Shown here one piece after another: positions 7,974-28,948 of a stretch of DNA of 64,000 nt. The DNA lies in assembly GCA_035628505.1 (NCBI GenBank), contig DASPJR010000215.1:1808-65807 (forward strand). Reading direction: 5' to 3'. The notes below the pieces were generated by a model. It worked only from the letters and a program-made list of their open reading frames with translations, ran no database searches and was not told the DNA's origin. A program made the position numbers and the translations under genes. The DNA is from Planctomycetota bacterium. Its GTDB lineage: Bacteria; Planctomycetota; SZUA-567; H5-PLA8. Each line of letters begins with the position of its first letter. The first letter of the stretch is position 1.

Positions 7974-9401
7974 TCACGTCATGATCTCGCTTACCACGTG
8001 CCCGTGAACGTCTGTTAACCGATAGTCGCGTCCGCTATAATGATAGGTCTGCTTCGTGTGATCGACGCCGAGCAGATGCAGAACCGTCGCGTGCAGGTCA
8101 TGCACCAGCAGCTTGTTCTCGACGGCCTTGTAGCCAAATTCGTCCGTTGCGCCGTAGATCGTGCCGCCTTTGATCCCCGCGCCGGCGAGCCAGATACTGA
8201 AACCGAGTTGATTGTGATCGCGGCCGTTGCTGCCCTGGCTGAAGGGCGTGCGCCCGAATTCTGTCGCGAACACGACAAGCGTATCCTTGAACAGGCCGCG
8301 CGATTTCAAATCTTTGAGCAGGCCGGCGATTGGCTGGTCGATCGCCAGCGCGTGATCCGTGTGATTTCCTTTGAGATCGCCATGCGCGTCCCAGCGTTCA
8401 TCGCCTTTCACCTTCGGCGTTGAAAGCGCAACAAAGCGCACGCCGCGTTCGACCAGGCGGCGCGCGAGCAGGCATTGCTTGGCGTAGTTGCGAGTGTGCT
8501 CAAATTTTGCATCGAAGCCATAGAGCTTTTTCGTCGCTTCGCTTTCGCCACTGAGATCCAGCAGGCTTGGAACGGAGGTCTGCAGGCGCGCGGCCAACTC
8601 ATAATTCTTGATCGCCGACTCGATGGCGTCCGCTTTGCCAAGCTGCTGCGAAAATTCATGATCCTGCGCCGCGATGAACTGAAGCTGGCGCTTCTGCTTC
8701 TCGGGGTTCGCGGGAGTGAGGTTCGAAACGGCCGGGTCCTTGCGTTCGAAAACAGATGCTGAGAATGTCGCCGGCAGAAAACCGCTCTTGTAGTTGTCGA
8801 TTCCGCCGGTCGGGAGCAGCCCTGCGTTGAGGGCGACGAAGCCGGGAAGATCGTCCGCTTCGCTGCCCAGTCCGTAATTGATCCACGATCCGATGCTTGG
8901 CCGCCCGGCAGTGCCCCAGCCGGTGTGCATCCAGTAATTGGCGTTGGCGTGCACGGCGCTCTCGTTGGTCATGGAGCGGATGACAGCCAGATCGTCGACG
9001 CACTCGGCGATGTACGGCAGCATCGAGCTGACTGGTATGCCGCTCTGACCGCGCGGTTTGAATTCCCACAGCGGCGCCATCACCGGGCCGTTCGAGTCAA
9101 ATTGAGTGGCCTCGATCTTCATCGGAAATTTCTTGCCTGCATCGGTGGTCAGGCGCGGCTTGGGATCGAACGTGTCAACGTGTGAGATGCCGCCGTCCAT
9201 GTAGAGCCAGATCACGCGCTTGGCCTTGGGCGCGTGATGCAGCCCAGTCGCCGTGGCGGACGCTGTTCGGGCAAAAAGCGAAGCCAACGCAAGGCTGCCC
9301 ACGCCCAGCGAGGCGCGCTGGAGGAATGCGCGGCGGGAATGTGGCGCGAACTTTAGTTCGGGAAACGTGTGCGGCCGCCCGCAGGAGCACTCAGTTGACA
9401 T
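7974..9401 (-). CDS. DUF1501 family protein (sulfatase-like fold) with twin-arginine signal
   Basis: 475-aa ORF. N-terminus is SRRAFLQRASLGVGSLALASLFA (Tat-like). Body matches the DUF1501 family that partners PSCyt/DUF1549/DUF1553 proteins in Planctomycetota, Verrucomicrobiota and Solibacter. Overlaps the upstream gene by 11 nt on the same strand. Confidence 0.8.
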   Translation of the reverse strand: MSTECSCGRPHTFPELKFAPHSRRAFLQRASLGVGSLALASLFARTASATATGLHHAPKAKRVIWLYMDGGISHVDTFDPKPRLTTDAGKKFPMKIEATQFDSNGPVMAPLWEFKPRGQSGIPVSSMLPYIAECVDDLAVIRSMTNESAVHANANYWMHTGWGTAGRPSIGSWINYGLGSEADDLPGFVALNAGLLPTGGIDNYKSGFLPATFSASVFERKDPAVSNLTPANPEKQKRQLQFIAAQDHEFSQQLGKADAIESAIKNYELAARLQTSVPSLLDLSGESEATKKLYGFDAKFEHTRNYAKQCLLARRLVERGVRFVALSTPKVKGDERWDAHGDLKGNHTDHALAIDQPIAGLLKDLKSRGLFKDTLVVFATEFGRTPFSQGSNGRDHNQLGFSIWLAGAGIKGGTIYGATDEFGYKAVENKLLVHDLHATVLHLLGVDHTKQTYHYSGRDYRLTDVHGHVVSEIMT

Positions 9402-12219: not shown

Positions 12220-12344
12220 AATGCCGACCTCTAAACGCCACTTGGCAAGCCAGCTCTTTATACCTGCTAAGCGGGCTCTGCGTTACAAGGATTTCGGCTT
12301 TCTTTCAGTTCATTTTTCCTGATGAGGTTGTTCAAAAAATTGAA

Positions 12345-13298
12345 TCACTTCTGTGGAACGATCCAGATGTTTCGGAACCGTACCGGGTTTCCGTGCCCCT
12401 GCAGGTAGATCGGCCCTTCAGACAACTCAGGCTTTGTGCCGCCCGCTCCGGTTCCTTTGGCAAGCTCGACGTTATCCTGAATCTTGACTCCATTGTGAAC
12501 AACGGTGATGCGGGCGTTTGCCACCTTCTTCTCACCCTCGAACTTCGGCGCGGTGAAGTCAATGTCGTAGGTTTGCCAGGCCAATGGCGGGTAGGCCATA
12601 TTCAAATCTGGCGTCTTAAAGTGATACAGCGAGCCGCACCACTGCGTGCGATCGGAACTCGCAGCCGCGCCGAGATCCCTCTGGAACGCTTCTTTCCAGT
12701 TAGCCTTGTGCGTATTAGGGAAGTAATGAATTCCGAACGAATCGAGCACCTGAACTTCGTAACGATCGAAAATGTAAACGCCACTGTTCCCGCGGCCCTG
12801 GCCGCCGAGCGGCGCATCGGGTTTGTAGGGCAGGCGGAATTCGATGTGCAGTTTGAAGCTCTGGAATTTCTGCTTCGTCCGCGTGCCCTCGCAAAGCAGG
12901 CCGCTCTCCAGCTTCGCGCCTTCCCACTGTTCGTTTGCGTTTCCATCGAAGAGGACGACTGCGCCCGCAGGAGCCTTTTCGCCCAGGGTGGGACTCTGGC
13001 GCTGCACACGCTTGTAGCCTTCAATGACGGTCTTTACGTCGGCGGAGGTTGCTGTCGAAACGGCGACAGTTTTTTCGTCCCAGCCCTGTCCTGGCAGTCC
13101 GCCGCTGAGCTTCGAGAGCAGAAATTTTCCCGGGCTGAGCGTGGCGATTTGCAGACCTTCGCCGGGCTTATCGTATTCGCCTTGGATCAGAAAATCCGGA
13201 TCGGCGGCCGCGGTGTCTGGATTTGTGTGCGTCTGCCCAGCAAAACCGGACCAGGCGGCACAAAGGAGAACTGTCAGGCACAAATGCTTTATCGTCAT
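12345..13298 (-). CDS. DUF1080 (3-keto-disaccharide hydrolase / LamG-like) domain secreted protein
   Basis: Signal peptide MTIKHLCLTVLLCAAWSGFA. C-terminus (GNSGVYIFDRYEVQVLDS...GPIYLQGHGNPVRFRNIWIV) is the canonical DUF1080 ending. I chose the start at 13298, 4 nt after the upstream stop. Alternative overlapping start at 13358. Confidence 0.75.
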   Translation of the reverse strand: MTIKHLCLTVLLCAAWSGFAGQTHTNPDTAAADPDFLIQGEYDKPGEGLQIATLSPGKFLLSKLSGGLPGQGWDEKTVAVSTATSADVKTVIEGYKRVQRQSPTLGEKAPAGAVVLFDGNANEQWEGAKLESGLLCEGTRTKQKFQSFKLHIEFRLPYKPDAPLGGQGRGNSGVYIFDRYEVQVLDSFGIHYFPNTHKANWKEAFQRDLGAAASSDRTQWCGSLYHFKTPDLNMAYPPLAWQTYDIDFTAPKFEGEKKVANARITVVHNGVKIQDNVELAKGTGAGGTKPELSEGPIYLQGHGNPVRFRNIWIVPQK

Positions 13299-13302
13299 TA
13301 AT

Positions 13303-15660
13303 TTATTTTCCCGGAACGACGTTGATGGTGTTGTAAATTTCGTGAGCGATCGTCGCACCGTCGGCGGATTTGATGCGGTACTTAATCATCATCTGCATCA
13401 CGGGCTTCATCTCGCCCAGTTCCAGGAAGACACTCTTGCCGTCCGCCGACAACTTCGCCAATTTAACTTCGACCGTGTCACGGCCTTTCTTCTTTGGATC
13501 TGAGACGCTGAATTCCGGTGAACCGTACGCCGATGAGTAATTGTAATTCCACTGCTCAACGCTGTAGGCGGTGGCGTCTCCGGCATCGGCAGAACTGAGC
13601 GCCACCGGAAAACCGATTTCAATGCCAGTGGGTTTGACGCGCAGGGACGACGGATAGAACGCCGGCTTTCCGGTGTAGCGCACACGGTTGAGACAGCCAT
13701 CTTTGGCGCCGGACGTCTGCCAGCCGCGCGAGCCGACCACATACAGTTGGCCATCTGCCGGGTTGAAGCGGGCACGCATGACGCCGGATGCGAACTGAAG
13801 CGGAATTTTCACCACGCCGCCCTGCATCGTGCCATTAATCTCTTCGGTGCAGCAGAGGAACAGAGATGCTTTGCCGTACGAAAGATGGATCATCTGGCCT
13901 TTGTACGGCCCCCAGCGTTCGTCTGGGACCCAGGCCTGCCCGCCGCTGGAATTGTCGGCGGTCATCGGCAGCCAGAAGATGGGCGGATCGTAACTGGTGA
14001 TCGCGTTGGCGTTGACTAGATGCGACTTGTAGCCGTAGAAACCACCCTGCTTCACGCGGGTGACTTTGCTCGAGGGCGTGTAATTTCCCTGGTTATCGCT
14101 GTAAGTCAGAACGTCGCCAGGACCCATGCCGAAGCCGTTGGGACTGCGCAGCCCGGTGGCGTACTCCTCCAGCTTGCTTCCATCCTTCGAAACCCGGATC
14201 ACGCATGCGTGGTTCGGCAGCCCCGGCTTGACGCGGTGTCCGCACACGCCGTAATAAAAATTTCCCGCGGCGTCGGTCTGAAGATCGAACGCATAGGCGT
14301 GATAATTGGGCGAGACAACGCGATCGTTGTTGAAGTTCTCGTAGTAGTCGGCCTCGCCGTCGCTATTGAGATCATGCAGCCGCGTGATCTGATCGCGTCC
14401 CAGTACATAAATTTTGCCATCGACGACTTTCAGCCCGAGCGGCTCGAACATTCCGGTGGCAAACCGCCGCCACGTCAGCGTCTCAAGCTTCGGTGTGATG
14501 GGCGAGCTGATCCAGACGTCTCCGCTGATCTCGCAGATGGCAACGCCGCCATCTGGAAGAAAATCGAACCCCGAAGAGCGCACCCAGGCCTTCCAGGGAT
14601 TGTCGACCGGCAGCGTCAGCGTATCGACCGTGTACGGTCCGTTATCCGCGCCCATTTCGCAGCGCACGTCGATCTGCTTATCCCAGCGGCGCGGTCCGCC
14701 TTTGCAGAGCGCCGGAAGATCGCTGACTTTTGCCGCTGCGGCCTTTGCCGCTGCTTCAAACTCTGCGCCGCCTTTTGCGCCCGACCAGATGCAGAGCTTG
14801 AAGGTCGCTGGTGCCGTGAGCGCCGGAAGTTTCAACGACAGCATGCCGCCTGCATTGGTCAAGGCCGCTCCTTTAGGAGTCCCCGCGACTGCGACGCCGA
14901 TGCAGGAATCCTTCTCAAGCATGGCGCTCAGCAGTCCCTCAGCATCTCGCGGAGCCGGGCCGCTGGCGCCCTCAGTGTCGGCGATGAACACCGTCAGCGG
15001 CGCCGGGGATTTATCGATGTGAATCGTGCGCGTGAAAACAAAACTGGAACCGGAACCCTCGCTGCCAAACATTTCAAGGACTTGGGCGCCGCCAACCGTA
15101 TAGGAGAAAACGACGTTGTTACCGTTCAGATAAAGCCCTTTGTAATGTGCCGCTGATTTCGGAAGCGGACCGTACGGCTGCGCGCGAGGATCTTTTCGGT
15201 CGTCGTTGATCGCCCACCCCGGCAGCGTTTTCGTGCTGAACTTGATTGTGCCGGCGATGGACGGATTGACTGTTCCGCGCAGCATGCCCAGCATCGTATT
15301 GTCGAGCTTGAGGTAATCGCCGGTCCAGCCGAATGCGACACGCATTAGATCTGTGTCGAAGCACATGGTAGCCGGCGCAGATCCGCTCAGGCGAACGGCG
15401 ATGCCTTTGTAGGCAAAATTCAGATTGCCTTTTGAGTTTGGCCACGAGTCGGTTGCAAAACTCGCGACGCCATCGCTGATCGACGCGGTGACAAACGGCC
15501 CGTGGTCCATGTGAAAGCCGGGCGAGTCCACCTTCTTCTTCGACGGCGGCTGCTTCGCTTCAACGTCGTCGTCTTCGCCGCAGAAAACGGGAACTGCAGC
15601 GGCGCTCGCGAGCAGGATCGCCAGGCATACTTTCAAACGAACATTCATGCGCTGCTCCAA
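13303..15660 (-). CDS. secreted beta-propeller protein with putative membrane-bound-dehydrogenase (TIGR02604-like) domain, no heme motif
   Basis: 785-aa ORF with signal peptide MNVRLKVCLAILLASAAAVPVF. Middle resembles the Pirellula/Verrucomicrobium dehydrogenase domain (DGKIYVLGRDQITRLHDLNSDGEADYYENF...GNFYYG). No CxxCH. Confidence 0.6.
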   Translation of the reverse strand: MEQRMNVRLKVCLAILLASAAAVPVFCGEDDDVEAKQPPSKKKVDSPGFHMDHGPFVTASISDGVASFATDSWPNSKGNLNFAYKGIAVRLSGSAPATMCFDTDLMRVAFGWTGDYLKLDNTMLGMLRGTVNPSIAGTIKFSTKTLPGWAINDDRKDPRAQPYGPLPKSAAHYKGLYLNGNNVVFSYTVGGAQVLEMFGSEGSGSSFVFTRTIHIDKSPAPLTVFIADTEGASGPAPRDAEGLLSAMLEKDSCIGVAVAGTPKGAALTNAGGMLSLKLPALTAPATFKLCIWSGAKGGAEFEAAAKAAAAKVSDLPALCKGGPRRWDKQIDVRCEMGADNGPYTVDTLTLPVDNPWKAWVRSSGFDFLPDGGVAICEISGDVWISSPITPKLETLTWRRFATGMFEPLGLKVVDGKIYVLGRDQITRLHDLNSDGEADYYENFNNDRVVSPNYHAYAFDLQTDAAGNFYYGVCGHRVKPGLPNHACVIRVSKDGSKLEEYATGLRSPNGFGMGPGDVLTYSDNQGNYTPSSKVTRVKQGGFYGYKSHLVNANAITSYDPPIFWLPMTADNSSGGQAWVPDERWGPYKGQMIHLSYGKASLFLCCTEEINGTMQGGVVKIPLQFASGVMRARFNPADGQLYVVGSRGWQTSGAKDGCLNRVRYTGKPAFYPSSLRVKPTGIEIGFPVALSSADAGDATAYSVEQWNYNYSSAYGSPEFSVSDPKKKGRDTVEVKLAKLSADGKSVFLELGEMKPVMQMMIKYRIKSADGATIAHEIYNTINVVPGK

Positions 15661-19247: not shown

Positions 19248-20267
19248 CTATTTCTTTGCGGCGGGGAATTCCTCTTTAGCGTATTTCTCGAACGCGGCTG
19301 CGATACCCGCAGCTTTCTCATCGCCTTTGTGGAAAATAATCCGGTGGCGCAGGACGATGCGTTCGCCGGGGGGAATTGTGATTTTTCCGTCCTCGGCATT
19401 CCTGTCCAGGCTTCGAACACCAAACGGATTGGCGGTGAACAGGCCGTAGGTGCGAACGTGCCACGGAGTGGGATAACGGAAGCTTGAGGGGTGGTTGAGG
19501 ATGGCGATGCCGAGCGTTTCGCCGTCCACCGGTCCGTAATAGTCGCACCACTTTGCGCGCTTGCCCCAGGCAGCCGCGTCGGTGTGGCCTTCGCTGTTGA
19601 TAATGCGGCCGCCCAGTTTGGTATCCACGGCCATCGACGTGGGCACGCGCACGCTGAAGCCGGCGTCTTTACGGTCGTCAAACGTCAGCGGCCCATCGGT
19701 GGCGATGAAGTCGATGTCGTAATCGATAATGCGCGCCTCGCCGTCAACCCGGAACGTCAGTCGCCGCAGATCCTCAAACGATTTCTTCCCGTCGAAACCC
19801 ATGTACGCGTTGCTTGCGACGATAACGGCCTTGTCCGTGGTCGCACTCACTTCTTTGAATTCCAGATGCTTGATTGCACCAAGCTTCGCCAATCTGTGCG
19901 TCAGCTTTGGGTTTTCGAGAAAGGTTGTTTTCTCGTGCCACGTATCAGAGCCATTGGCGACTTCGTGTCCGAAATAAATGGAACGATGATGGGGATGATC
20001 ATGCTGCTCGCCGTCGATTTTCTTCACGGGGTAAGCGCGCGTCATGGCTTTTCCGGTCGGACCAATTACCGGCCAGAGGTACGGCTTGTTCTCCTCACCG
20101 ATCAGGTAATCCGTGAAGAGCTCGCCATTGAGCTTCACCGTGACGCCGCGTTCGGTTTTTTCGACCGAGAATCCTTCGCCCGCACAGGCAGTAAACGCGG
20201 CAAAGGCGAACACACAGAGAATGTACTTATGAGTAGTCACTGCTTCCCTCCGGGCATTTCGGACCAC
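19248..20267 (-). CDS. PmoA-family (DUF6807) secreted protein
   Basis: GTG start. Signal peptide (KYILCVFAFAAFTACA). Conserved EQHDHPHHRSIYFGHE block typical of the PmoA/DUF6807 family. Confidence 0.7.
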   Translation of the reverse strand: MVRNARREAVTTHKYILCVFAFAAFTACAGEGFSVEKTERGVTVKLNGELFTDYLIGEENKPYLWPVIGPTGKAMTRAYPVKKIDGEQHDHPHHRSIYFGHEVANGSDTWHEKTTFLENPKLTHRLAKLGAIKHLEFKEVSATTDKAVIVASNAYMGFDGKKSFEDLRRLTFRVDGEARIIDYDIDFIATDGPLTFDDRKDAGFSVRVPTSMAVDTKLGGRIINSEGHTDAAAWGKRAKWCDYYGPVDGETLGIAILNHPSSFRYPTPWHVRTYGLFTANPFGVRSLDRNAEDGKITIPPGERIVLRHRIIFHKGDEKAAGIAAAFEKYAKEEFPAAKK

Positions 20268-20430
20268 TTTCAGGTCACCAGTGTCACTCCAGCATACGCC
20301 GATGCTGGCAAAAGTGTCGAAACCGCCCGCGTTTATCTTCGATCAACATCCGGCGTCGTCAGTTCTATGGCGACACGCGGCTCCGCTGCCGCAAGTGGCA
20401 GAGCGAGCAACGTAAGGAGCACGGCTGCTA

Positions 20431-21891
20431 TTACTTTTTCTTGTCCCCGACAGGGACCTGCGGTTTGGCTTCCGGATGAGTAGCCAGCAGCGCGGTAAGT
20501 TTCGCGACGACCTCCGGCTGTTCGGCAGCGAGGTTTTTCGTCTCGCCCGGATCAGCCTGATAATCGTAAAGCTCAAACACGGCCGTGCTGGCCGGCGCAC
20601 CCGGCTTCTTCCATTCGACCAGGCGGTATCGCTCGGTGCGGATTGCGCGTCCCAGCATCCCGCCGCCGCGCGGATAAACGTGAATGATGTGGTCGCGTGC
20701 CGCAGCCGCTGGATCACGCACGACTTTTGCGAAACTTCTGCCGTCGATTCCTGTCGGTACAGGCACGCCGGCGAGTTCAGCAAGCGTCGGATAAACGTCG
20801 ACCGTCTCGATCAGCGCCTGCGTGCGCGCGCCTTTCGCCCCCGGCAGCGCGAGGATGAACGGGATGCGCGCGGCTTCCTCATAATTCGTATGCTTGCACC
20901 ACATTCCGTGGTCGCCGAGATGAAAGCCATGATCGCCCCACAGCATGACAATCGTGTTCTTGCTTAAGCCTGTTTCGTCCAGCGCATCCAGCACGCGACC
21001 GATCTGCGCATCGGCGTAGCTGGTCGCGGCATAGTAGCCGTGGATCAGCTGGCGCGAAAGATCCGGCCCCATTGGGCCGTCCTGTGGAATTGCGGCGTAC
21101 TGCCGCAGCTCGCCGCCAAACTGCGGAGCGAACTTTGGCGCGCCGTCCGGCGGAGTCAACCGTGCGGCCTGCGGAAGCTTCTGCGGATCGTAAAGGTCCC
21201 AGTACTTTTTCGGCGCAACAAAAGGCAGGTGCGGGCGGATGAATCCGACAGCCATGAAGAAAGGCTCGTCCTTATCTTTCGCCGCCTGGAGACGCCGCAC
21301 GGCCTCGGCCGCAATTTTTCCATCCGCGTACGTGTCATCCGATACATCCGCGCACTCCAGCGCCTTGCCGCGCGGCAGGTTCTCCGGCTTAGACTTGTCG
21401 GCGTTCGGGTCCGCCGGCGGCGCGTTGTTCTCCTTTAGTGCGTATTGCGGTGCGCGCGGTGAGAAGTGCGGCACGCTCCAGGAGGCCGCGTCTTCACGAT
21501 TGCCGTGTCCAGTATGAAAGATTTTCCCCATCGCTTCCGTACGATAGCCACTCTTCTGAAAATGCTGCGCTATCGTTAGGGCATCCGGCACGGCCTTGCG
21601 GAAATTTGTTGCCAGATCGTAAATCCCCAGCGTCTGCGGACGCAGGCCGAGCATCAATGCGTTGCGCGAAGGCGAGCAGACCGCCTGGTTGCAGTACGCG
21701 CGTTCAAAGAGCACGCCGCGGCTGGCGAGCTTGTCCATGCTGGGCGTTCTGGCGAATGTTTCGCCGTAGCAGCCGAGCAGCGGTTTGAGATCGTCAACGC
21801 AGATGAACAGGACGTTCGGTTTGACCGGCTCGCCGGCACAAAGCGTCAGCGACGCCAGCGCGCAAGCAATCAATAGCGCAAAAACGTGCAC
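20431..21891 (-). CDS. Cys-type sulfatase (iduronate-2-sulfatase-like)
   Basis: Signal peptide, then LFICVDDLKP...CSPSRNALMLG (the C-x-P-x-R formylglycine motif). Also GDHG and metal-ligand regions. Confidence 0.9.
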   Translation of the reverse strand: MHVFALLIACALASLTLCAGEPVKPNVLFICVDDLKPLLGCYGETFARTPSMDKLASRGVLFERAYCNQAVCSPSRNALMLGLRPQTLGIYDLATNFRKAVPDALTIAQHFQKSGYRTEAMGKIFHTGHGNREDAASWSVPHFSPRAPQYALKENNAPPADPNADKSKPENLPRGKALECADVSDDTYADGKIAAEAVRRLQAAKDKDEPFFMAVGFIRPHLPFVAPKKYWDLYDPQKLPQAARLTPPDGAPKFAPQFGGELRQYAAIPQDGPMGPDLSRQLIHGYYAATSYADAQIGRVLDALDETGLSKNTIVMLWGDHGFHLGDHGMWCKHTNYEEAARIPFILALPGAKGARTQALIETVDVYPTLAELAGVPVPTGIDGRSFAKVVRDPAAAARDHIIHVYPRGGGMLGRAIRTERYRLVEWKKPGAPASTAVFELYDYQADPGETKNLAAEQPEVVAKLTALLATHPEAKPQVPVGDKKK

Positions 21892-21918: not shown

Positions 21919-22869
21919 TCAGCGCTTCTGGCGCAGCGAAAGCTGGTACTCGGACGGCGACAACCCCGTTGCGCGGCGGAAAACCTTGGCGAAGTAATTT
22001 CCGTTGGCAAAACCGGTTTGCCGCGCGATCTCCTTCATGGATACCCCGCCGCGCACCAAAAAGTCTTTTGCACGCTGAATGCGAATCTGCGCCAGCATTT
22101 CAAAGAGGGCGATACCGTATTCCTGCGAAAAGCCGCGGCAGAGATGGAACGGGCTGACATCAAAATGTAGCGCGAGACCCTCGAGTCCGATGGGTTCGGC
22201 GCAATGCTGGACAAGGTAGTCATGGACGCGGCGCATCAGATCGTTGCGCTTGCGCCGGGCCAGGGCACGGCGTGCTTCCGGATCGGGCGAATAGCGGTGG
22301 TGCGCGTAACGCAGAAGCGCGAGCAGGATTTCAAGCAGCGTCACACGCATCCGCTGCGGCGCGCCTGCGCTCTCGCCGCGGTACTCGTCCTCAAGTTCCT
22401 TAAGCATCATCTGCAGGTGCATGCGCGCGCTTTCATTTTTAAACGGCACGCCTGCTCCGAGCTCCCGCAGGCTTTTTTCAAGGCCTGGCGCGCGGAAAAA
22501 GACATAGAGCGCGCGATAGTCCTCGCCTTTGGCACGAATGTCCTTGTGCGGCGTGCCTTGAGGAATAATGAAGACGTCACCCGGGCCGACGTCGAACGTC
22601 CGCTTGCGCAGCTCGATGCGAGCATGTCCCTGCCGGACCTGGATCAATTCATGCGTGGGCGTGGCATGGAAGCGCTCTGCCCACTGGTCACCGACAGAGA
22701 CCTCATCGAGCTCATAAAGCACCGGGAGCGCCGAAAGGCCGCGTTCAAGTGCGCGTGTCCAGGCATCCTCTGGCGGTTTCTGCAGGAGGCACGCGGCCCG
22801 ATCCCACGTCTGCTCCGGGCTGGCTTTCGGCATACACGCGACGGTACAAAAATTTACCCTTCTTTGCAA
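21919..22869 (-). CDS. AraC-family transcriptional regulator (cupin sensor + HTH)
   Basis: C-terminal AraC HTH (IARQTGFANGNYFAKVFRRATGLSPSEYQ). N-terminal cupin-like region. Start ambiguous (22869 or internal MPKASPEQ at 22833). Confidence 0.85.
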   Translation of the reverse strand: MQRRVNFCTVACMPKASPEQTWDRAACLLQKPPEDAWTRALERGLSALPVLYELDEVSVGDQWAERFHATPTHELIQVRQGHARIELRKRTFDVGPGDVFIIPQGTPHKDIRAKGEDYRALYVFFRAPGLEKSLRELGAGVPFKNESARMHLQMMLKELEDEYRGESAGAPQRMRVTLLEILLALLRYAHHRYSPDPEARRALARRKRNDLMRRVHDYLVQHCAEPIGLEGLALHFDVSPFHLCRGFSQEYGIALFEMLAQIRIQRAKDFLVRGGVSMKEIARQTGFANGNYFAKVFRRATGLSPSEYQLSLRQKR

Positions 22870-22902
22870 GACGAGGAAGCCGCGTGCGCTGGAGGCAACT
22901 GT

Positions 22903-25900
22903 ATGTATAAACAGTGGATTGCCACCCGGAGAACGCGTATGCGCTTTAGCATTCCTTTGTCTTTTCTGTTCTGCGTGCTGACCTGGACGTGCGTGTCTGG
23001 TGAAAACGCCTTTCGAGCAGGCATCGCGAGTGTCGACATCTCACCGCAGAAATTTCCGGTGCGCGTCAACGGTGGCTTCACTTCGCGCGAAGCGGGCAAA
23101 CTTCTCGATACATTGGAAGCCAAAGCGCTGGCGCTCGACGATGGCAAAATGCGCATCGTGATTGTCCTCGTCGATTCCTGCATGCTCCCGCGCACGCTGA
23201 TAGACGAAGCCAAGGAACTCGCCGCGAAGACTACAAAAATCCCGACCGAGAACATGCTCGTGGCTGCCACGCACACGCATTCGGCGCCGTCCGCGATGGG
23301 CTGTTTAGGCACGCCCCCTGATGACGTTTACCCGCAGCTGCTTCCCGGCAAAATTTCGCAGGTTATCGAGAACGCCGTCGCGGCGTTGCAGCCCGCGAAG
23401 GTAGGGTGGGGCTCCGTGCAGGCGCCGGAGTACACCAACTGCCGGCGCTGGATCCGCCGCTTCGACAAGTTGCTCACTGACCCGTTCGGTGAAAAGAACG
23501 TTAAGGCGAACATGCATCCGGGCTACCTCAGTCCCGATGCGATCGGCCCGAGCGGGCCCGTCGATTCGGAACTGGGGATTCTGTCGGTGCAGACGGCAGA
23601 CGGCAAGCCGCTGGCTTTGCTCGCCAACTATTCGATGCACTACTTCGGTGCGGGCATGCTCTCGTCGGACTACTTCGGGCGCTTCGCGAAGGAGGTCGCC
23701 CGCCGCATTGCTCCGCAGCAGGATGCGAATTCGTTTCTAGTCATCATGTCGCAGGGCACCAGCGGCGATCTATACTGGGCCGATTACAGCAAGCCGGCGA
23801 AAAGTCTCGGCATGGATGAATACGCCGCAGCAATGGCGGCCAAGGCCCAGGCCGTCTACGAAAAAATCAAGCATCAGGATTCACTGACGCTCGCCATGCG
23901 CGAGGCGAAGCTGACTCTTGGCTTCAGGCTCGCCGATGAAAAACGGATGGCGTGGGCGAAATCCGTTGTCGCGGGACTCAACGGACGTCTGCCGAAAACG
24001 ATTCCCGAAGTTTACGCGCATGAACAGATCTTTCTGGCCGAGCGGCCCACGGCGGAGCTCAAGCTGCAGGCTGTTCGCATCGGGGACATGGCTTTCACAG
24101 CGATTCCCAACGAGGTGTATTCGATCACCGGCCTCAAGCTGAAGGCGCAGAGCCCCCTGAAGCCCACCTTTAATATTGAGCTCGCCAACGGCTCTGAAGG
24201 CTACATTCCTCCGCCCGAGCAGCACACGCTAGGCGGTTACACAACATGGCCCGCGCGCACCGCCGGACTTGAGGTTCAGGCCGAGCCACGCATAGTCGAA
24301 GCGCTGCTCAAGCTGCTGGAGGACGTTTCGGGTAAGCCGCGCCAGAAGCTCATCGACACGCACGGCGCGTACGCTGAAAATGTGCTCAAGGCCAAGCCGC
24401 TTGCGTATTACCGCTTGAACGAGATCAGCCTGCCGCAGGCGCTCGACGCGAGCGGCAATGGCCGCCACGCGCAGTACGAAGAGAAGATCGCGCTCTATCT
24501 CAGCGGCCCCGACTCAGCAGCGTTCTCCGGCGAAGCAGTCAACCGTGCGCCGCATTTCGCGGGCGGCCGCCTGCGCGCGCCGGCAAAGCCAGGTGGCAAA
24601 TACTCGGTCTCGTTCTGGCTCTGGAATGGCTTGCCCAAAGACGTACGCGACGTTGCCGGCTACGCCTTCTCCTATGGCGCCGATAAGGCCGCGCAAGCGC
24701 CAGGAGATCATTTGGCCATCGGCGGCAAAGCCATTGCCGGAGGCAAGGTTCTCTTTTTTAACGGCGACACGCTCAATCAGGTTCTTGAAGGCAAGACTGA
24801 AATACCGCTCAAGACGTGGGTACATGTCGCTCTCGTGCGCGATGGCAAAAACGTCATCGTTTATCTGAACGGCAAACCTGAAATCACCGGCGAGGCAGCC
24901 AGCAGCGTTCCGGCCGAAGGCGCCGAGTTCTTCTTTGGCGGACGCAACGATCATTTGTTTGATTGGGAAGGCAAACTCGACGAAGCGGCGATTTTCGATC
25001 GCGTGTTGAGCGCCGACGAAGTCGCGGCTCAGTTTGCGGCGTCTGGCATGCCTGGCATCGCCGCTGCGCCCGAAGCGGCTCCCAAGACCCCGGCACAGAA
25101 TCTGAAAGCGCCCACGCCGCAGGAAGCACTCGCGGCGCTTCGCGTCAAAGACGGCTTTGAGGTTCAGCTCGTTGCGGCCGAACCGCTCACGCTCGATCCG
25201 GTCGCCTTCGACTGGGGGCCTGATGGACGCCTCTGGGTTGCCGAAATGGCCGATTATCCGCTTGGTATGGATGGAAAAATGAAGCCGGGCGGTCGCATCC
25301 GCGTACTGGAAGATACGAATGGCGACGGCGTGTACGACAAGTCGACACTGTTCATGGACGACGTGCGCATGCCCACTGGCATCATGGTCTGGCGCGGCGG
25401 CGTTTTAGTCAGCGCGGCGCCTGAAATCATTTTTGCGTCGGACACAAATGGCGACGGCAAGGCCGACGAAAGGAAGGTGCTCTACAGCGGTTTCAAGGAA
25501 GGCAATCCGCAGCTGCGCGTCAACGCCCTGCGCTGGGGGCTCGATGGCTGGGTTTACTGCGCCAACGGCTGGAGCAACGGCACGGTCAAATCCGCAGCGA
25601 CCGGCGAGAGCGTCGATATCAGCGGGCGCGATCTGCGCATTCAGCCCGACACGGGGCGGATGGAAACGATCTCCGGCGTGACGCAGTTCGGCCGCGAGCG
25701 CGACGACTTTGACCACTGGTTCGGCGTGAACAATAGCTTTCCCGTGTGGCATTACGTGCTGAACGAACGGTACGCCAAGCGCAATCCGCACGTCCCGGCG
25801 CTCGATCCGATCAAGCAGCTTGTTCTGCCGCGCAACCCCAAGATCTTCCCGATCGCACCTCCCGAAAAACGCTATCACAGCTTCAACGAAGCCGGCCGCT

Positions 25901-27936
25901 TCACTTCCGCGTGCTCGACGATGATCTACCGGGATGAGTTCCTGTTTCCGGCGTCGGCCGACATGCATGCTTTCACCTGCGAGCCCTTTCACAGCCTGAT
26001 GCATCACGAAATCCTGCGTCATGACGGCGTGAGCTTCAGTGCGCAGCGGCCGGATGATGAAAAGGAGAGCGAATTCCTCGCTTCGTCCAGCCGCTGGTTC
26101 AAGCCCGTCATGGTCCGCATGGGCCCGGATGGAGCGCTGTGGGTCGCCGACATGTGCCGCCTGATGATCGAGCATCCCGAATGGCTGCCGGCCGAAGGCA
26201 AAGCTGAGATGGCGCCGATCTACCGCGCCGGAGAAGATACCGGTCGCATCTTCCGCATCGTGCCGAAAAACGCCGCGCGGCGCGCGATCCCGAATCTTTC
26301 CGCGCTCACGCCCGCGCAGCTCACGGCGCGCCTTAGCAGCGCAAATGGATTTGAGCGTGACCTCGTCCAGCGCATGCTCCTCTGGCGCGCTGACAAAATG
26401 GTTGAGCCGGAACTTGCGAAAATCGCACGCAGCGGCGAGCGGCCTGCGTCGCGCGCCCAAGCGCTGTGGACACTGCACTGCCTTGGCGAGACACCGGCGG
26501 ACGTTCTTATCGCTGCCCTGAGCGATGCCTCGCCTGCTGTTCGTGAGCAGGCTGTGCGTATCGCCGAATTTCACGGCGAAAAAGCCGATGTACGCGGCGC
26601 GGCGCTTAAGCTGGCCGGCGACCCCGATGCCAAAGTCCGCCTGCAGCTGGCTTGGACAGCGGGTACGTGGAAGGAAGCCGAAGCGGGCAAGGCGCTGGCC
26701 TCGATTGCCCTGCGTGATGTGAGCGACAAATACATCACGGCGGCTGTACTCAGTTCGGCGGTGCCGCACTGCGCGGCTCTTTCCAGTGAACTCCTCGCCG
26801 CTGGGCCAGCCGGGCAGGCCTACTTCGAGCCGCTGCTGAACACTGCTTTGGCCACGCAGCAGCGCGAGGCGCTTGCGGTGCTGCTGCGCGGCGCGCTCGC
26901 GGCTCCTGAAAAAAGTGCCCAGATGAATGCGCTGTCGGTGCTGCTCGAAGCAATCCGCAGGCGGGGCGCCTCGCTTGAAAAACTACGCTCATCGGCCGCG
27001 GACGCGCTGACGACGGAACTCGAAAAAATTTCGGCCATTCGCGAGAATGCGCGCACGCTTGCGGCGGCATCTGATACCGAAGCATCTCTGCGTGCCGCAG
27101 CAGTCCGGTTGCTCGGTTATGACAATGAACAGCGCGAGAGCGCAGCGGAGATTCTCAAGCCGCTGCTCGCGCCGCAGACGCCCACCGACCTGCAGCTTGC
27201 GGCGGTAAAGTCGCTGGCGCGGCTTGGCGGTGAGCGCGTCCCGGAAAACCTGCTCGGCGGCTGGAATACGTATGGGCCCTCACTGCGCTCGGCGATTGCC
27301 GATGAGCTGCTCAGCCGCGACGAATGGGCGCTGGCGCTGCTGAAAAGCATTGAAGCGAAGAAGGTCGCTGCAATGGAACTTGACGCGCAGCGCCGCGAGC
27401 GGCTGCTCAAGCACAAGACGGCGGCGATCAAGGACCAGGCGAAAAAGCTCTTCGCGGCGACGGTCAACGAAGACCGGCAGAAAGTCGTCGATGCTTTCAC
27501 GCCGGCGCTGAAGCTCACGCCTAACCGCGACAATGGCGTGAAAATTTTCGCGCGTGCCTGCATTGCCTGTCACAAGCTCGATGGCGTCGGGCAGGAGATC
27601 GGGCCTGATCTGCGCTCGGTCGCCGCACATGCGCCGGAGAAACTGCTCGCGTCGATTCTCGATCCGAGCCGCGCGATCGAGCCCGGCTACATGGCGTTTG
27701 CCTGCGTGCTCAACTCGGGCGAGCAGGTTTACGGCCTCATTACCGCCGAGAGCGGCGCGAGCATCTCGATGAAACTGGCCGACAACACGATGCGTTCGAT
27801 CCTGCGCAGCGAGATCAAGGTTCTGCGCGGCACGAATGTCTCCCTGATGCCTGAAGGTCTTGAAGCCGGGCTCAGCCAGCAGGACATCGCCGACCTGATC
27901 CATTATCTCAGGACACCAACCACGACCAAGAATTGA
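22903..27936 (+). CDS. giant secreted multidomain protein: neutral-ceramidase-like N-domain + LamG-like lectin domain + TIGR02604-like dehydrogenase beta-propeller + HEAT repeats + TIGR02603-type CxxCH heme-binding domain
   Basis: I chose start MYKQWIATRRTRMRFSIPLSFLFCVLTWTCVSG. The ORF-track start at 22204 overlaps the AraC gene. VAATHTHSAPS ceramidase-like motif. LamG-like segment (WVHVALVRDGKNVIVYLNGKPE). FDWGPDGRLWVAEMADYP propeller. HEAT region (AVREQAVRIAEF). CIACHKLDGVGQEIGPDL...SLMPEGLE heme domain. Confidence 0.85.
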   Translation: MYKQWIATRRTRMRFSIPLSFLFCVLTWTCVSGENAFRAGIASVDISPQKFPVRVNGGFTSREAGKLLDTLEAKALALDDGKMRIVIVLVDSCMLPRTLIDEAKELAAKTTKIPTENMLVAATHTHSAPSAMGCLGTPPDDVYPQLLPGKISQVIENAVAALQPAKVGWGSVQAPEYTNCRRWIRRFDKLLTDPFGEKNVKANMHPGYLSPDAIGPSGPVDSELGILSVQTADGKPLALLANYSMHYFGAGMLSSDYFGRFAKEVARRIAPQQDANSFLVIMSQGTSGDLYWADYSKPAKSLGMDEYAAAMAAKAQAVYEKIKHQDSLTLAMREAKLTLGFRLADEKRMAWAKSVVAGLNGRLPKTIPEVYAHEQIFLAERPTAELKLQAVRIGDMAFTAIPNEVYSITGLKLKAQSPLKPTFNIELANGSEGYIPPPEQHTLGGYTTWPARTAGLEVQAEPRIVEALLKLLEDVSGKPRQKLIDTHGAYAENVLKAKPLAYYRLNEISLPQALDASGNGRHAQYEEKIALYLSGPDSAAFSGEAVNRAPHFAGGRLRAPAKPGGKYSVSFWLWNGLPKDVRDVAGYAFSYGADKAAQAPGDHLAIGGKAIAGGKVLFFNGDTLNQVLEGKTEIPLKTWVHVALVRDGKNVIVYLNGKPEITGEAASSVPAEGAEFFFGGRNDHLFDWEGKLDEAAIFDRVLSADEVAAQFAASGMPGIAAAPEAAPKTPAQNLKAPTPQEALAALRVKDGFEVQLVAAEPLTLDPVAFDWGPDGRLWVAEMADYPLGMDGKMKPGGRIRVLEDTNGDGVYDKSTLFMDDVRMPTGIMVWRGGVLVSAAPEIIFASDTNGDGKADERKVLYSGFKEGNPQLRVNALRWGLDGWVYCANGWSNGTVKSAATGESVDISGRDLRIQPDTGRMETISGVTQFGRERDDFDHWFGVNNSFPVWHYVLNERYAKRNPHVPALDPIKQLVLPRNPKIFPIAPPEKRYHSFNEAGRFTSACSTMIYRDEFLFPASADMHAFTCEPFHSLMHHEILRHDGVSFSAQRPDDEKESEFLASSSRWFKPVMVRMGPDGALWVADMCRLMIEHPEWLPAEGKAEMAPIYRAGEDTGRIFRIVPKNAARRAIPNLSALTPAQLTARLSSANGFERDLVQRMLLWRADKMVEPELAKIARSGERPASRAQALWTLHCLGETPADVLIAALSDASPAVREQAVRIAEFHGEKADVRGAALKLAGDPDAKVRLQLAWTAGTWKEAEAGKALASIALRDVSDKYITAAVLSSAVPHCAALSSELLAAGPAGQAYFEPLLNTALATQQREALAVLLRGALAAPEKSAQMNALSVLLEAIRRRGASLEKLRSSAADALTTELEKISAIRENARTLAAASDTEASLRAAAVRLLGYDNEQRESAAEILKPLLAPQTPTDLQLAAVKSLARLGGERVPENLLGGWNTYGPSLRSAIADELLSRDEWALALLKSIEAKKVAAMELDAQRRERLLKHKTAAIKDQAKKLFAATVNEDRQKVVDAFTPALKLTPNRDNGVKIFARACIACHKLDGVGQEIGPDLRSVAAHAPEKLLASILDPSRAIEPGYMAFACVLNSGEQVYGLITAESGASISMKLADNTMRSILRSEIKVLRGTNVSLMPEGLEAGLSQQDIADLIHYLRTPTTTKN

Positions 27937-28060
27937 ACGCTCCGAATGCCCTTAGCTGCTAAAGAGCCCGGAAAATCCGCGACGTCTCCTTATAATGCGC
28001 CACGCTGAATGCGCTCGCGCGCTCAAACGTCCCGTTTGTTGCATACATGGAGATCCGCCG

Positions 28061-28948
28061 ATGAAGCCGGCAACGCTCGCTTTTGCCTGTCTGTTTTCTC
28101 TTTCGCTGCTCTCGCTCCGCGCCGAAACCCCCGCGGAGAAACTTAAGGCGCTTGGCGCGAAGGTCACCGAAGCCGGCGGCGTGGTGACGCAGGTGCAGGT
28201 CGACGCGGCCAAGTTCACCGCAGACGATTACAAGACGCTCAACGCCTGCACGCAGATAAAAAAGCTCACCATCAACGGTAAGACACTCAACGATGCCGCG
28301 CTGGCTTCGCTTTCGGGCCTTGAACAGCTTGAAGAGCTCAGCACCAACGAAACGCAGCTCAGTGACGAGGGCTACAAAGGCTTCCAGGCATTTAAAAAAT
28401 TGCGCTCGCTGGCGCTTTATCATCCCTCGTGGGATCTAAAGACGTTCACCGGCACGGGCCTGGCGCATCTCAAAGGCTGCCCCAATCTAACGCGGCTCAC
28501 GTTTGCAGGCTCCACCGTCGGCGACACGGGGCTCGAAGCCATCGGGCAAATCTCGCAGCTCAAGGAGTTTCTGATCTGGCACACAATGCAGACTCAGGCC
28601 GGCAATAAGCATCTGCTCAATCTCAGCCTTACGTTCCTGAAAATCGGGCAGCGCCTGCCGAGGTGGGGAACGACGCCTGCGCCGAGTTTCGATGCCAGCA
28701 CGATTCCGCTGATTGCGCAGATGAAATCGCTCGAGCGCCTGGAGCTTTTCGAAGCGCGCCTCACCGCTGAAAATCTTCAGCCGCTGAAGGAACTGCCGAA
28801 GTTGAAGCTGCTGTCGATCCACACCTGCGACATCTCAGCGGCGGATATCGATGCCGTTAAAGCCGCGCTGCCGCAGGTGAAAGTCGACTTCAAGCCCATC
28901 ACTGATGCCGACAAGGAAGCGACGCTGGTTAAGAAGCTTAAGCTTTGA
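28061..28948 (+). CDS. secreted leucine-rich-repeat protein
   Basis: ATG 28061 (MKPATLAFACLFSLSLLSLRA) with GGAGA RBS. LRR-like L-rich periodic repeats throughout. Confidence 0.75.
   Translation: MKPATLAFACLFSLSLLSLRAETPAEKLKALGAKVTEAGGVVTQVQVDAAKFTADDYKTLNACTQIKKLTINGKTLNDAALASLSGLEQLEELSTNETQLSDEGYKGFQAFKKLRSLALYHPSWDLKTFTGTGLAHLKGCPNLTRLTFAGSTVGDTGLEAIGQISQLKEFLIWHTMQTQAGNKHLLNLSLTFLKIGQRLPRWGTTPAPSFDASTIPLIAQMKSLERLELFEARLTAENLQPLKELPKLKLLSIHTCDISAADIDAVKAALPQVKVDFKPITDADKEATLVKKLKL

Follow-up and report, generated by a model that had tools for sequence, protein, structure and literature searches.

This locus raises the question of whether a ceramidase-like hydrolase, a LamG domain, and a propeller-heme "dehydrogenase" pair can be joined in one secreted polypeptide and, if so, what such a protein would act on and how it is tied to the AraC-family regulator encoded divergently beside it. 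In the window, which is the whole 64-kb stretch of DNA analyzed, the gene and its parts are as follows.

22939 to 27936, plus strand: fusion gene, 1665 aa plus stop, a continuous open reading frame whose product is 100% identical to NCBI protein P0001
22939 to 23001, plus strand: Sec-type signal peptide (MRFSIPLSFLFCVLTWTCVSG), read from the translation by eye
23008 to 24522, plus strand: neutral-ceramidase-fold domain (AF2, Foldseek, hhalign, conserved residues)
24595 to 25026, plus strand: LamG/concanavalin-A-like jelly-roll (Pfam Laminin_G_3, 7.6e-17, residues 565-708)
25117 to 26271, plus strand: DUF7133/TIGR02604 beta-propeller, the "PVC-type" domain (PF23500, 4e-150; TIGR02604, 3e-79)
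26311 to 27522, plus strand: HEAT/ARM-like alpha-solenoid (Pfam HEAT_2), connecting the propeller to the cytochrome domain
27529 to 27915, plus strand: class-I-like mono-heme cytochrome c domain (TIGR02603, 6e-33; Pfam Cytochrom_C)

The translated frame is open without a stop from either 22903 or 22939 to 27936. ATG 22939 is the probable start, favored over the alternative ATG 22903 (which gives 1677 aa) by the NCBI call for P0001, named "PVC-type heme-binding CxxCH protein," and by the spacing to a conserved upstream element. The reading-frame start listed at 22204 is, as the earlier note had supposed, an artifact of antisense read-through over the AraC gene. The closest homolog, P0002 (1673 aa), shares 58% identity over 99% of the query, and because homologs align end to end, neither a frameshift nor a two-gene artifact, the case raised in that note against its own proposal of one secreted fusion, is present; a single intact polypeptide with a signal peptide and a five-domain design is encoded. 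The motifs VAATHTHSAPS and CIACH lie at residues 120-130 and 1553-1557 (1677-aa numbering). Attachment of c-type heme takes place outside the cytoplasm and requires export, and the fusion protein is predicted to be exported, either to the periplasm or to the surface, from the signal peptide and the c-type heme site; AF2 pLDDT in the signal-peptide region was below 50 at residues 11-20 and had a mean of ~48 over residues 1-20.

The LamG domain, the TIGR02604/TIGR02603 propeller-heme pair, and the HEAT region were all recovered by Pfam and NCBIfam domain scans, in agreement with the initial reading of the sequence. The proposed ceramidase-like N-domain was borne out by fold, profile, and residues but not by Pfam score: the cutoff for the ceramidase family (PF04734), 32.1 bits, was reached by neither the whole protein (26.2 bits) nor the isolated domain (31.2 bits), and the match was partial, covering profile positions 3-101 only, so that the identity of the domain rests on fold and profile evidence. 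The AF2 model of the domain (pLDDT 93.4, pTM 0.92) had neutral ceramidases as its top four Foldseek matches (E 1e-24, probability 1.0), including 2zws, 2zxc, and 4wgk, and hhalign against the verified 4wgk sequence gave a probability of 95-97% (E 2.9e-8 to 1.7e-10). Conserved residues H124, H126, R185, H246, E404, Y434, and Y446 (1677-aa numbering) align with human H194, H196, R257, H303, E540, Y579, and Y591, of which we take H194, H303, E540, and Y579 to be zinc ligands; D289 is conserved as well. In the hhalign alignment, HTHS is paired with H194/H196, NYSMH with H303, GD with the GD of NLGDVSPN, PNE with E540, and GYI with Y579, whereas Y446 was matched to Y591 via intermediate homologs. 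His196, Arg257, Tyr579, and Tyr591 have been named as catalytic in human neutral ceramidase (PMC6952831). Across sets of 120 and of 71 homologs, the residues aligned with the active site vary little or not at all, so the proposed check on the catalytic HxH, His, Glu, and Tyr found them kept; the position of human Ser354 is occupied by Tyr in the window protein and by Met in the family consensus (hhalign). The N-domain thus carries the neutral-ceramidase catalytic fold with active-site-aligned residues, and it would presumably act as a Zn-dependent N-deacylase.

The fusion protein shares with the neutral ceramidases (Pseudomonas aeruginosa PaCD, 2ZWS/2ZXC; human ASAH2, 4WGK) the fold of the catalytic domain, the HxH, His, Glu, Tyr(x12)Tyr, and GD motifs, and secretion, but it has LamG where ceramidases have a C-terminal Ig-like domain, is joined to a propeller-cytochrome module, and probably acts on a substrate other than ceramide. 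A genuine ceramidase, scavenging eukaryotic or bacterial (glyco)sphingolipids with LamG binding the head-group glycan while the propeller-cytochrome module oxidizes the released sphingoid base, would account for the neutral ceramidases being the closest solved structures, for the conserved active site, and for the ganglioside-binding LamG-like domains of clostridial neurotoxins among the structural matches. It nonetheless appears improbable: structural alignments give just 13% identity to ceramidases and the hhalign columns ~24%, the Pfam gathering score was missed, and the protein has neither the disulfide-rich insert of ~110 residues nor the C-terminal Ig-like domain that ceramidases possess. 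Moreover, cytoplasmic paralogs under orthologous AraC regulators have a DegT-type sugar aminotransferase as their partner, a pairing more suggestive of amino sugars than of lipids. The LamG domain itself, which also matched AbnA domain 4 and a trans-sialidase lectin domain in structure, is a probable glycan-binding module.

The C-terminal 950 residues constitute a full member of the PVC-type heme-binding CxxCH proteins (TIGR02604 plus TIGR02603; DUF7133), scoring above the curated cutoffs (TIGR02604, 267 bits versus 122; TIGR02603, 113.6 bits versus 68; NCBIfam), with DUF7133 matched over residues 739-1123 at 500 bits (Pfam); the fusion protein differs in its extra 700-residue N-terminal ceramidase-like and LamG module. 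In the AF2 model of this part (pLDDT 90.8), the solenoid is all-helical and matches importin-alpha and alphaRep proteins in structure. Among solved propellers, the closest in structure are luciferin-regenerating enzyme (TMt 0.60) and the PQQ-dependent sugar dehydrogenase sGDH of Acinetobacter (1C9U; TMt 0.47), which has a similar six-bladed topology and the same first-blade motif, PxAxxWxPDxxxWxxE. The likeness to sGDH is only generic, and the non-redox luciferin-regenerating enzyme scores better. There was no significant sequence or profile relationship to sGDH (no PQQ or GSDH Pfam match to the propeller even at E<10; 1.7% probability by hhalign), the residues that bind PQQ and Ca could not be located in the propeller, and neither a cofactor nor catalytic residues were assignable to this putative dehydrogenase. 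In quinohemoproteins, as in the fusion protein, a cytochrome domain is carried on the same chain, suggesting a similar logic in which substrate oxidation is coupled to heme reduction; the long HEAT solenoid between propeller and cytochrome sets the fusion protein apart from quinohemoprotein-type dehydrogenases. CIACH (27559-27573) is the sole CxxCH of the fusion protein, the candidate axial ligand is Met1649 (SLMPEG) at 27847-27849, and the C, C, H, and M of the heme site are invariant in 71 homologs. The domain matches the Kuenenia diheme cytochrome Kustd1711 (7zs0) both by sequence (2.9e-10) and by fold (9e-7), and these invariant ligands, together with the likeness to a characterized electron-transfer cytochrome, argue for a redox role.

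The only characterized relative of this C-terminal part is Lac161_ORF7 (GenBank AGW45552), a protein of TIGR02604, HEAT, and cytochrome c without the N-terminal module, which was reported as a beta-galactosidase; the purified protein released glucose from lactose with a Km of 1.8 mM (PMC5342196). The fusion protein could likewise be a glycan-degrading enzyme without substrate redox, its N-domain deacetylating an amino sugar, its propeller cleaving glycosidic bonds, and its cytochrome serving redox sensing, regulation, or stability. The hydrolase-type six-bladed propellers among the best structural neighbors, such as luciferin-regenerating enzyme, are consistent with that proposal, and the LamG domain and the neighboring sulfatase and 3-keto-disaccharide-hydrolase-family genes suit glycan breakdown. 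We consider it unlikely, as the invariant heme ligands and the cytochrome that always accompanied the propeller in the proteins examined are hard to explain without electron transfer. In addition, the readout for Lac161_ORF7 was glucose release only, and formation of 3-keto-lactose followed by elimination would look alike; such an oxidation-then-elimination mechanism on glycosides has been described (bioRxiv 10.1101/2024.03.25.586180). No follow-up of the beta-galactosidase report was found in the literature searched.

The fusion had been described as an unusual combination, but NCBI already contains an identical protein, and of the 120 best database clusters at 90% identity, ~86 have the whole architecture, LamG included; at 50% identity, ~38 of the 150 top representatives are 1550-2100 aa long. 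The design is common in Planctomycetes and Verrucomicrobia and is neither unique nor rare. The ceramidase-like and propeller-cytochrome modules each occur alone as well and are joined in at least three arrangements, namely, with LamG as in the window protein, without LamG (P0327, P0361), and permuted (P0344), with DUF7133-HEAT-cytochrome c preceding the ceramidase-like domain. Joining in several arrangements counts in favor of functional coupling of the two modules. PVC genomes are rich in paralogs of such large proteins, several of which can lie within one window. This abundance, and the lack of a demonstrated activity for any protein of this architecture, would fit a noncatalytic periplasmic or surface binding or scaffold protein with inactive enzyme-like domains. 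Such a role is very improbable, since the ceramidase-aligned residues and heme ligands are strictly kept in proteins just 45-60% identical overall, pointing to selection on catalysis and heme binding.

Upstream of the fusion gene, the window contains the following regulatory features.

21919 to 22833, minus strand: AraC-family regulator gene, 304 aa (Pfam HTH_18, 2e-22; AraC_binding, 3e-13)
22834 to 22938, no strand assigned: divergent intergenic region, 105 bp (start 22939) or 69 bp (start 22903), by direct reading
22840 to 22871, minus strand: promoter/operator-like element TC-TTGCAAAGAAGGGTAAATTTTTGTACCGTC, conserved among araC-orthologue loci

The Pfam domains (cupin/AraC_binding, residues 54-155; HTH_18, residues 220-297) and the minus-strand position agree with the AraC-family identity and divergent orientation first proposed. 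The product matches NCBI protein P0388 (304 aa) at 100% identity, and orthologs at 73-75% identity are 304-305 aa long, which places the start at ATG 22833. TTG 22869 was rejected as a start and is the first triplet of the conserved noncoding element. With the start at 22833, the intergenic gap comes to 105 bp if the large gene begins at ATG 22939 and to 69 bp if it begins at ATG 22903, so the 33 bp given earlier is too short. The regulator shares the cupin/AraC_binding domain and double HTH with AraC/XylS-family members such as AraC and RhaS/RhaR, along with a divergent arrangement relative to the regulated gene and a direct-repeat element beside the promoters, but it scores far below all NCBIfam equivalog cutoffs and is therefore not an ortholog of any named regulator; its apparently leaderless transcript is a further difference.

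The connection between regulator and fusion gene goes beyond the adjacency first noticed. P0002 also has a divergent AraC gene, and AraC orthologs at 73-75% identity adjoin DMFA2_C plus DUF7133-HEAT-cytochrome c genes. Orthologs at 48-54% identity lie divergent to DegT, and wherever the contig extends far enough, as in L011, L012, and L127, ceramidase-like genes come next; in L013 and L015/L053, where the contigs end early, DegT alone is visible. The DegT neighbor is most similar to nucleotide-sugar aminotransferases. No AraC neighbor was present in more distant family members (P0025, P0072, P0071, L006, and L007).

The conserved element, which starts 36 nt ahead of the araC ATG, includes direct TTGC/TTGT repeats set 20 bp apart and fits a -35 TTGCAA/17 bp/TAnnnT layout that would start transcription at the ATG, so that the araC transcript is probably leaderless. 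It occurs once in the window, where 0 chance matches are expected, and was carried by all 8 loci compared (7 independent); in L009, L011, L012, L013, L015/L053, and L127 it precedes the araC start by 35-38 nt. The spacing does not hold to a constant multiple of three among loci, which indicates that the element is noncoding. The earlier note had suggested looking for an AraC box at 22870-22902, but the conserved element is located at 22840-22871 instead, ~70 nt upstream of the fusion-gene start codon, and it may be a plain araC promoter rather than a site controlling the enzyme gene. On the plus strand, the intergenic region contains TATGTA/TATAAA at 22902-22911 and a GGAGA Shine-Dalgarno sequence at 22928-22932 before ATG 22939; every locus compared has GGAG shortly before the start of the target gene. 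The region yielded no match to a sigma-70 consensus promoter.

The reading that we tentatively prefer, with slightly less than even confidence, is that of a periplasmic enzyme under AraC control, which removes the acyl group from an N-acylated, amino-sugar-like substrate and then oxidizes the product, with heme c receiving the electrons. The N-domain would deacylate an N-acylated amine with neighboring hydroxyls; an amino-sugar or glycan bearing an N-acyl or N-acetyl group, bound with the help of LamG, is a more plausible substrate than ceramide itself. The propeller would oxidize the amine or adjacent hydroxyl of the released product to a carbonyl, and the heme c domain would relay the electrons to the respiratory chain. 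In the periplasm, the fusion may thereby correspond to the cytoplasmic pair of ceramidase-like amidase and DegT sugar aminotransferase found beside orthologs of the same regulator. The AraC-family protein, its cupin domain sensing substrate or product, would control expression, probably via the element at 22840-22871 that overlaps its own promoter. A sugar effector, as suggested in the earlier note, is hypothetical, and the substrate is wholly an inference.

Counting against this AraC-controlled deacylase-oxidase are the loss of Ser354 and the Ig-like domain, the missing AraC in distant relatives, the failure to assign a cofactor or catalytic residues to the propeller, and the fact that the sole DUF7133-HEAT-cytochrome c protein with published biochemistry was reported to hydrolyze lactose, not to oxidize it (PMC5342196). 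In its favor is a keto-sugar theme, comprising the DegT neighbor, the fusion of ThuA to DUF7133 in L002 and L003, and P0254, in which a xylose-isomerase-like TIM barrel is fused to a ceramidase-like domain plus LamG. We know of no amidase step in the 3-keto-glycoside pathway, and the proposed oxidant here is a propeller with a heme c acceptor, whereas that pathway uses a Gfo/Idh/MocA oxidoreductase, which is lacking here. Extracytoplasmic oxidative handling of glycosides is nevertheless common to the fusion protein and to this pathway (Gfo/Idh/MocA, TIM-barrel lyase, and DUF1080 lyase/hydratase) with ThuA/ThuB, and the pathway lyases are such TIM barrels and DUF1080 proteins (bioRxiv 10.1101/2024.03.25.586180). 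Its partner domains recur around the fusion family, as ThuA-DUF7133, as TIM barrel-ceramidase-like-LamG, and as a PF06439 gene in the window.

The feature is one intact gene whose frame runs uninterrupted on the forward strand to 27936 in a translation of the window. It can begin at either of two ATG codons, and its product combines the following parts (residue numbers refer to the longer product).

ATG 22903, + strand: first possible start, 1677 aa, with GGAGG 7 nt upstream
ATG 22939, + strand: second possible start, 1665 aa, with GGAGA 6 nt upstream
Residues 565-708: Laminin_G_3 (Pfam)
Residues 739-1123: DUF7133 (PF23500), 500.8 bits against a cutoff of 27
TIGR02604 propeller (NCBIfam), 267 bits against a cutoff of 122.2
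From residue 1200: HEAT_2 (Pfam)
Residues 1543-1671: Cytochrom_C/TIGR02603, 113.6 bits for TIGR02603 against a cutoff of 68.15

The identical NCBI protein (P0001), named [quoted passage not shown] starts at 22939, and the N terminus read from there, MRFSIPLSFLFCVLTWTCVSG, is a predicted Sec signal peptide. A frameshift or an artificial joining of two genes was rejected on the basis of the continuous frame and of homologues that align from end to end. The multidomain polypeptide described in the earlier note is real and was for the most part correctly described. The ORF-track start at 22204 is, as stated there, an artifact of antisense read-through over the AraC gene on the minus strand.

The ceramidase-like character of the N-terminal region, proposed from sequence motifs, was borne out by structure and profile comparison, although the Pfam score alone falls below the cutoff. 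Ceramidase_alk (PF04734) scored 26.2 bits with the whole protein and 31.2 bits with the isolated domain, not reaching the gathering cutoff of 32.1, and its match in the Pfam scan of the fusion protein was partial, covering profile positions 3-101 only. This profile is known to give truncated matches in divergent homologues (PMC4443539), and in a common search three relatives scored above the cutoff (P0378, 59 bits; P0241, 71.7 bits; P0256, 42.9 bits). An AF2 model of residues 13-730 built from 120 homologues had a pLDDT of 93.4 and a pTM of 0.92, and its four best PDB matches were the neutral ceramidases of Pseudomonas aeruginosa (PaCD) and human (2zws, 4wgk, and 2zxc; E values of 1e-24 to 3e-23, probability 1.0). 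The sequence of 4wgk (human ASAH2) was checked against the PDB and then aligned to the family profile with hhalign, which gave 95% probability in local mode and 97% in global mode (E value of 1.7e-10, 380 columns). This alignment pairs window residues H124, H126, R185, H246, E404, and Y434 with human H194, H196, R257, H303, E540, and Y579, respectively, and places G288-D289 opposite the GD of human NLGDVSPN. The second tyrosine was mis-gapped in the forced global alignment; Y446 is assigned to the Y591 position because cytoplasmic homologues from two other loci (L011 and L012) align without gaps to both sides, that is, to the window domain and, in three out of the four local alignments made pairwise across Y..(12)..YE, to PaCD or the human enzyme. 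A phmmer search of the PDB with the C-terminal portion of this domain returned no match, and this part was instead mapped by hhalign and the intermediate homologues.

The zinc ligands of neutral ceramidase are presumably H194, H303, E540, and Y579. Residues H196, R257, Y579, and Y591 are catalytic in the human enzyme (PMC6952831). Conservation of the catalytic residues, which the earlier note had left to be checked, extends to the HxH pair, the further His, the Glu, and both Tyr, all of which are aligned with the active site and are invariant or nearly so in both family alignments (120 and 71 homologues); R185, aligned with R257, lies within a conserved RRWIRR cluster. The human Ser354 position, by contrast, is replaced in the window protein and not conserved in its family. 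Neutral ceramidases also carry a disulfide-rich insert and a C-terminal Ig-like domain, whereas the window domain has neither: the Pfam scan of the fusion protein found no match to Ceramidase_alk_C (PF17048), and LamG stands in its place. Weighing the modeled fold and the aligned, conserved residues against the differences at Ser354, the insert, and the Ig-like domain, we regard the N-terminal domain as a divergent member of the ceramidase-fold superfamily, ceramidase-like rather than a proven ceramidase, and probably catalytically competent.

The domain scan recovered the LamG, propeller, HEAT, and heme domains that had been noticed earlier. With both propeller and heme domains above curated cutoffs, the fusion protein classifies as a PVC-type heme-binding CxxCH protein. 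Its sole CxxCH motif, CIACH (residues 1553-1557), is followed by a conserved SLMPEG methionine, M1649, and the two Cys, the His, and the distal Met are invariant among 71 homologues. In the AF2 model of residues 726-1677 (pLDDT of 90.8, pTM of 0.89), the cytochrome domain is similar to Kustd1711, a diheme cytochrome of Kuenenia, and the HEAT solenoid to importin-alpha and alphaRep proteins, while the nearest solved structures to the propeller are luciferin-regenerating enzyme (TMt of 0.60) and the PQQ-dependent soluble glucose dehydrogenase, sGDH (TMt of 0.47), both with E values of about 1e-4. Membership of the propeller in the PQQ-sGDH family was considered and found unsupported: no GSDH (PF07995) or PQQ Pfam match to the fusion protein appeared even at E<10, and hhalign against the verified 1c9u (sGDH) sequence gave 1.7% probability, with no more than 22 residues of a first-blade motif aligned. 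The name "dehydrogenase" has thus been inherited and is not a result; of the "membrane-bound dehydrogenase" propeller described earlier, the domains with their HEAT and CxxCH partners stand, and dehydrogenase activity does not find support in these searches. The real argument for redox chemistry is the invariant heme site. The main rival reading is that of a non-redox, glycan-cleaving enzyme, and the sole experiment on the family in the literature searched bears on it: Lac161_ORF7, a TIGR02604-HEAT-cytochrome c protein, reportedly hydrolyzed lactose, read out as glucose release, and was reported as a beta-galactosidase (PMC5342196). If keto-sugar chemistry applies, the reported activity could be oxidation followed by elimination.

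The earlier note considered the fusion unusual, but about 86 of the 120 best 90%-identity clusters, drawn from Verrucomicrobiota and Planctomycetota, are 1650-2170 aa long and cover 94% or more of the query with about 50% identity, and the remainder have extra LamG inserts. A search of the 50%-identity library with the N-terminal module gave 749 representatives at E<1e-30, of which about 38 of the best 150 were 1550-2100 aa long. The literature searched on the family names, on ceramidases in PVC bacteria, and on ceramidase-like domains yielded no description of this architecture. The window protein belongs to an abundant, catalogued, functionally uncharacterized family, so its novelty is modest.

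The modules also occur in other arrangements. Stand-alone proteins consisting of the N-terminal module and LamG (about 720 aa, 57-62% identity) are very common, and the propeller-HEAT-cytochrome module stands alone at three loci (L008, L009, and L010) and in Lac161_ORF7. In two further proteins (P0327 and P0361), which lack LamG, the ceramidase-like domain is joined to DUF7133-HEAT-cytochrome c, and in a permuted fusion (P0344, 1592 aa) DUF7133-HEAT-cytochrome c precedes a C-terminal ceramidase-like domain. Two loci (L002 and L003) combine LamG and DUF7133 with ThuA, and a protein of 993 aa (P0254) carries a xylose-isomerase-like TIM barrel, a ceramidase-like domain, and LamG, in that order. 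Such fusions in differing arrangements are good evidence for joint action of the amidase-like and heme-propeller modules. A stand-alone ceramidase-like and LamG gene (P0136) had no DUF7133 neighbor, and the evidence for coupling therefore comes from the fusions and the AraC loci.

The AraC gene (21919-22833, minus strand) encodes 304 aa, as in the NCBI call P0388, with HTH_18 (79.7 bits), AraC_binding (50.1 bits), and Cupin_2 (32.1 bits) all above their cutoffs, which assigns its predicted product, with a C-terminal double helix-turn-helix and an N-terminal cupin, to the AraC/XylS family. A divergent AraC gene accompanies the closest fusion homologue (P0002, 58% identical); several distant family members have no AraC neighbor, and a genome-contig search with the fusion protein alone returned two loci, neither with AraC. 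At two loci whose AraC orthologues share 73-75% identity with the window regulator, a Tat-exported DMFA2_C (N,N-dimethylformamidase-beta-like) protein and a stand-alone DUF7133-HEAT-cytochrome c gene follow.

L009, 1181-5744: DMFA2_C and DUF7133-HEAT-cytochrome c gene pair adjoining an AraC orthologue
L010, 7924-12522: the same gene pair adjoining an AraC orthologue

Besides the ceramidase-like domain, the propeller-cytochrome module thus has DMFA2_C as another type of amidase-like partner. Where the AraC orthologue has 48-54% identity (L011, L012, L127, L013, and L015/L053), it stands divergent to a gene for a DegT/DnrJ/EryC1 sugar aminotransferase, which is followed by one or two cytoplasmic ceramidase-like genes wherever the contig is long enough (L011, L012, and L127); the L013 and L015/L053 contigs stop short of that position. 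The catalytic motifs are retained in these cytoplasmic genes, which share 23-26% identity over the whole window domain (E values of 1e-27 to 8e-33).

The AraC loci have a DNA element in common, TC-TTGC[GAC]AAGA[CA]GGGTAA[AT]TT[CT]TTG, with the window copy at 22840-22871 on the minus strand. At each of the eight loci (window, L009, L011, L012, L013, L015, L053, and L127), of which seven are independent, a distance of 35-38 nt separates its beginning from the araC start codon downstream, and it is noncoding because this distance is no constant multiple of three. The 64-kb window contains the element once against zero expected chance matches, a figure that is not fully independent as the consensus was built partly from the window copy. 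An araC start at TTG 22869, which would have left the 33-bp gap to the fusion gene described in the earlier note, is ruled out by the 304-aa NCBI call and by the element, of which this TTG is the first triplet. The element fits a layout of a -35 TTGCAA, a 17-bp spacer, and TAnnnT (in five of the eight loci). With a transcription start predicted at the ATG, the araC mRNA would appear to be leaderless. In the orthologues the -35-like TTGC(A/G)A keeps a constant spacing of 35-38 nt to the start codon, and there is no Shine-Dalgarno sequence. A conserved spacer and TTGC/TTGT repeats spaced by 20 bp suggest that the element is also a putative operator. At the other loci it lies 79-97 nt upstream of the start codon of the divergent target; the window copy precedes ATG 22939 by 69 nt and ATG 22903 by only 33 nt, and ATG 22939 is favored because its spacing is nearer to that of the other loci. 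Scans for sigma-70 promoters and intrinsic terminators found nothing around the intergenic region or after the fusion gene.

A metagenome scan for the element returned at least 120 stretches, of which 115 had no AraC, DegT, or ceramidase-like match among the matches listed and look like chance matches; another (L098) had a distant AraC-like HTH only, and the informative ones among those listed were L015, L053, L127, and L044, the window's own sequence. The last of these (JGI Ga0196964_10022373, 2607 bp) is 100% identical at the protein level to roughly 22050-23825 of the window. It takes in the whole of AraC, the intergenic region, and the fusion protein up to residue 295, so that the JGI metagenome must have sampled the same organism.

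An intact gene, real domains, conserved heme ligands and active-site-aligned residues, a recurrent fusion, and a regulator and element connecting the component families are established. A periplasmic two-step enzyme is a function to which we give slightly less than even weight: the N-terminal domain would deacylate an N-acylated amino-sugar-like substrate that LamG may help to bind, and the deacylated product would then be oxidized, with electrons passing to heme c. Its parallel would be the cytoplasmic amidase and aminotransferase route under the orthologous AraC. The DegT, ThuA, and xylose-isomerase-like TIM barrel partners and nearby PF06439 genes point to keto-sugar chemistry, for which a 3-keto-glycoside pathway has been described (bioRxiv 10.1101/2024.03.25.586180). 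A broader reading, which we think unlikely, is that DUF7133-HEAT-cytochrome c proteins form a large, PVC-specific, unrecognized class of periplasmic oxidoreductases that receive products directly from amide hydrolases of the ceramidase-like, DMFA2_C-like, or ThuA-like kind, either fused or adjacent, and pass electrons to the respiratory chain. The window protein would then be a self-contained "deacylate-then-oxidize" machine for N-acylated amino sugars or amines, doing outside the cytoplasm what the AraC-linked amidase and DegT pair does inside.

Planctomycetes and Verrucomicrobia of soil and water have DUF7133/TIGR02604 proteins and ceramidase-like proteins with LamG in great abundance, and there are thousands of clusters of the N-terminal module alone. 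The value of this locus is a testable functional link between amide hydrolase and propeller, which rests on the repeated and once permuted fusion, the conserved aligned residues, and a single AraC subfamily that, with its operator-like element, joins ceramidase-like genes, DegT aminotransferases, and DUF7133 cytochromes. Should this link prove true, a large "dark" protein family would gain a role in PVC carbon and nitrogen turnover; if it is not, the locus is one more member of a catalogued family.

On the minus strand (19248-21891), a sulfatase with SGSH_C starts 27 nt after the AraC stop and is followed on the same strand by a DUF6807 (PF14100) gene; the putative Lac161 operon likewise has a PF14100 gene, together with the DUF7133 protein for which beta-galactosidase activity was reported (PMC5342196). 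The fusion gene is followed at 58 nt by a leucine-rich-repeat gene (27995-28948, plus strand); no terminator-like hairpin separates the two, which may be cotranscribed. The region 7974-15660 encodes a DUF1501 protein with a PSCyt1/PSCyt2/PSD1 cytochrome protein, a 3-keto-disaccharide hydrolase (DUF1080) family protein, and a DUF6797 protein, which are typical Planctomycete gene families, and many of its products are uncharacterized exported proteins related to heme or glycans. Antisense ORFs of up to 454 aa within the fusion gene (e.g., 25405-26769, minus strand) have no independent support and look like the usual by-product of coding sequence with about 60-64% G+C.
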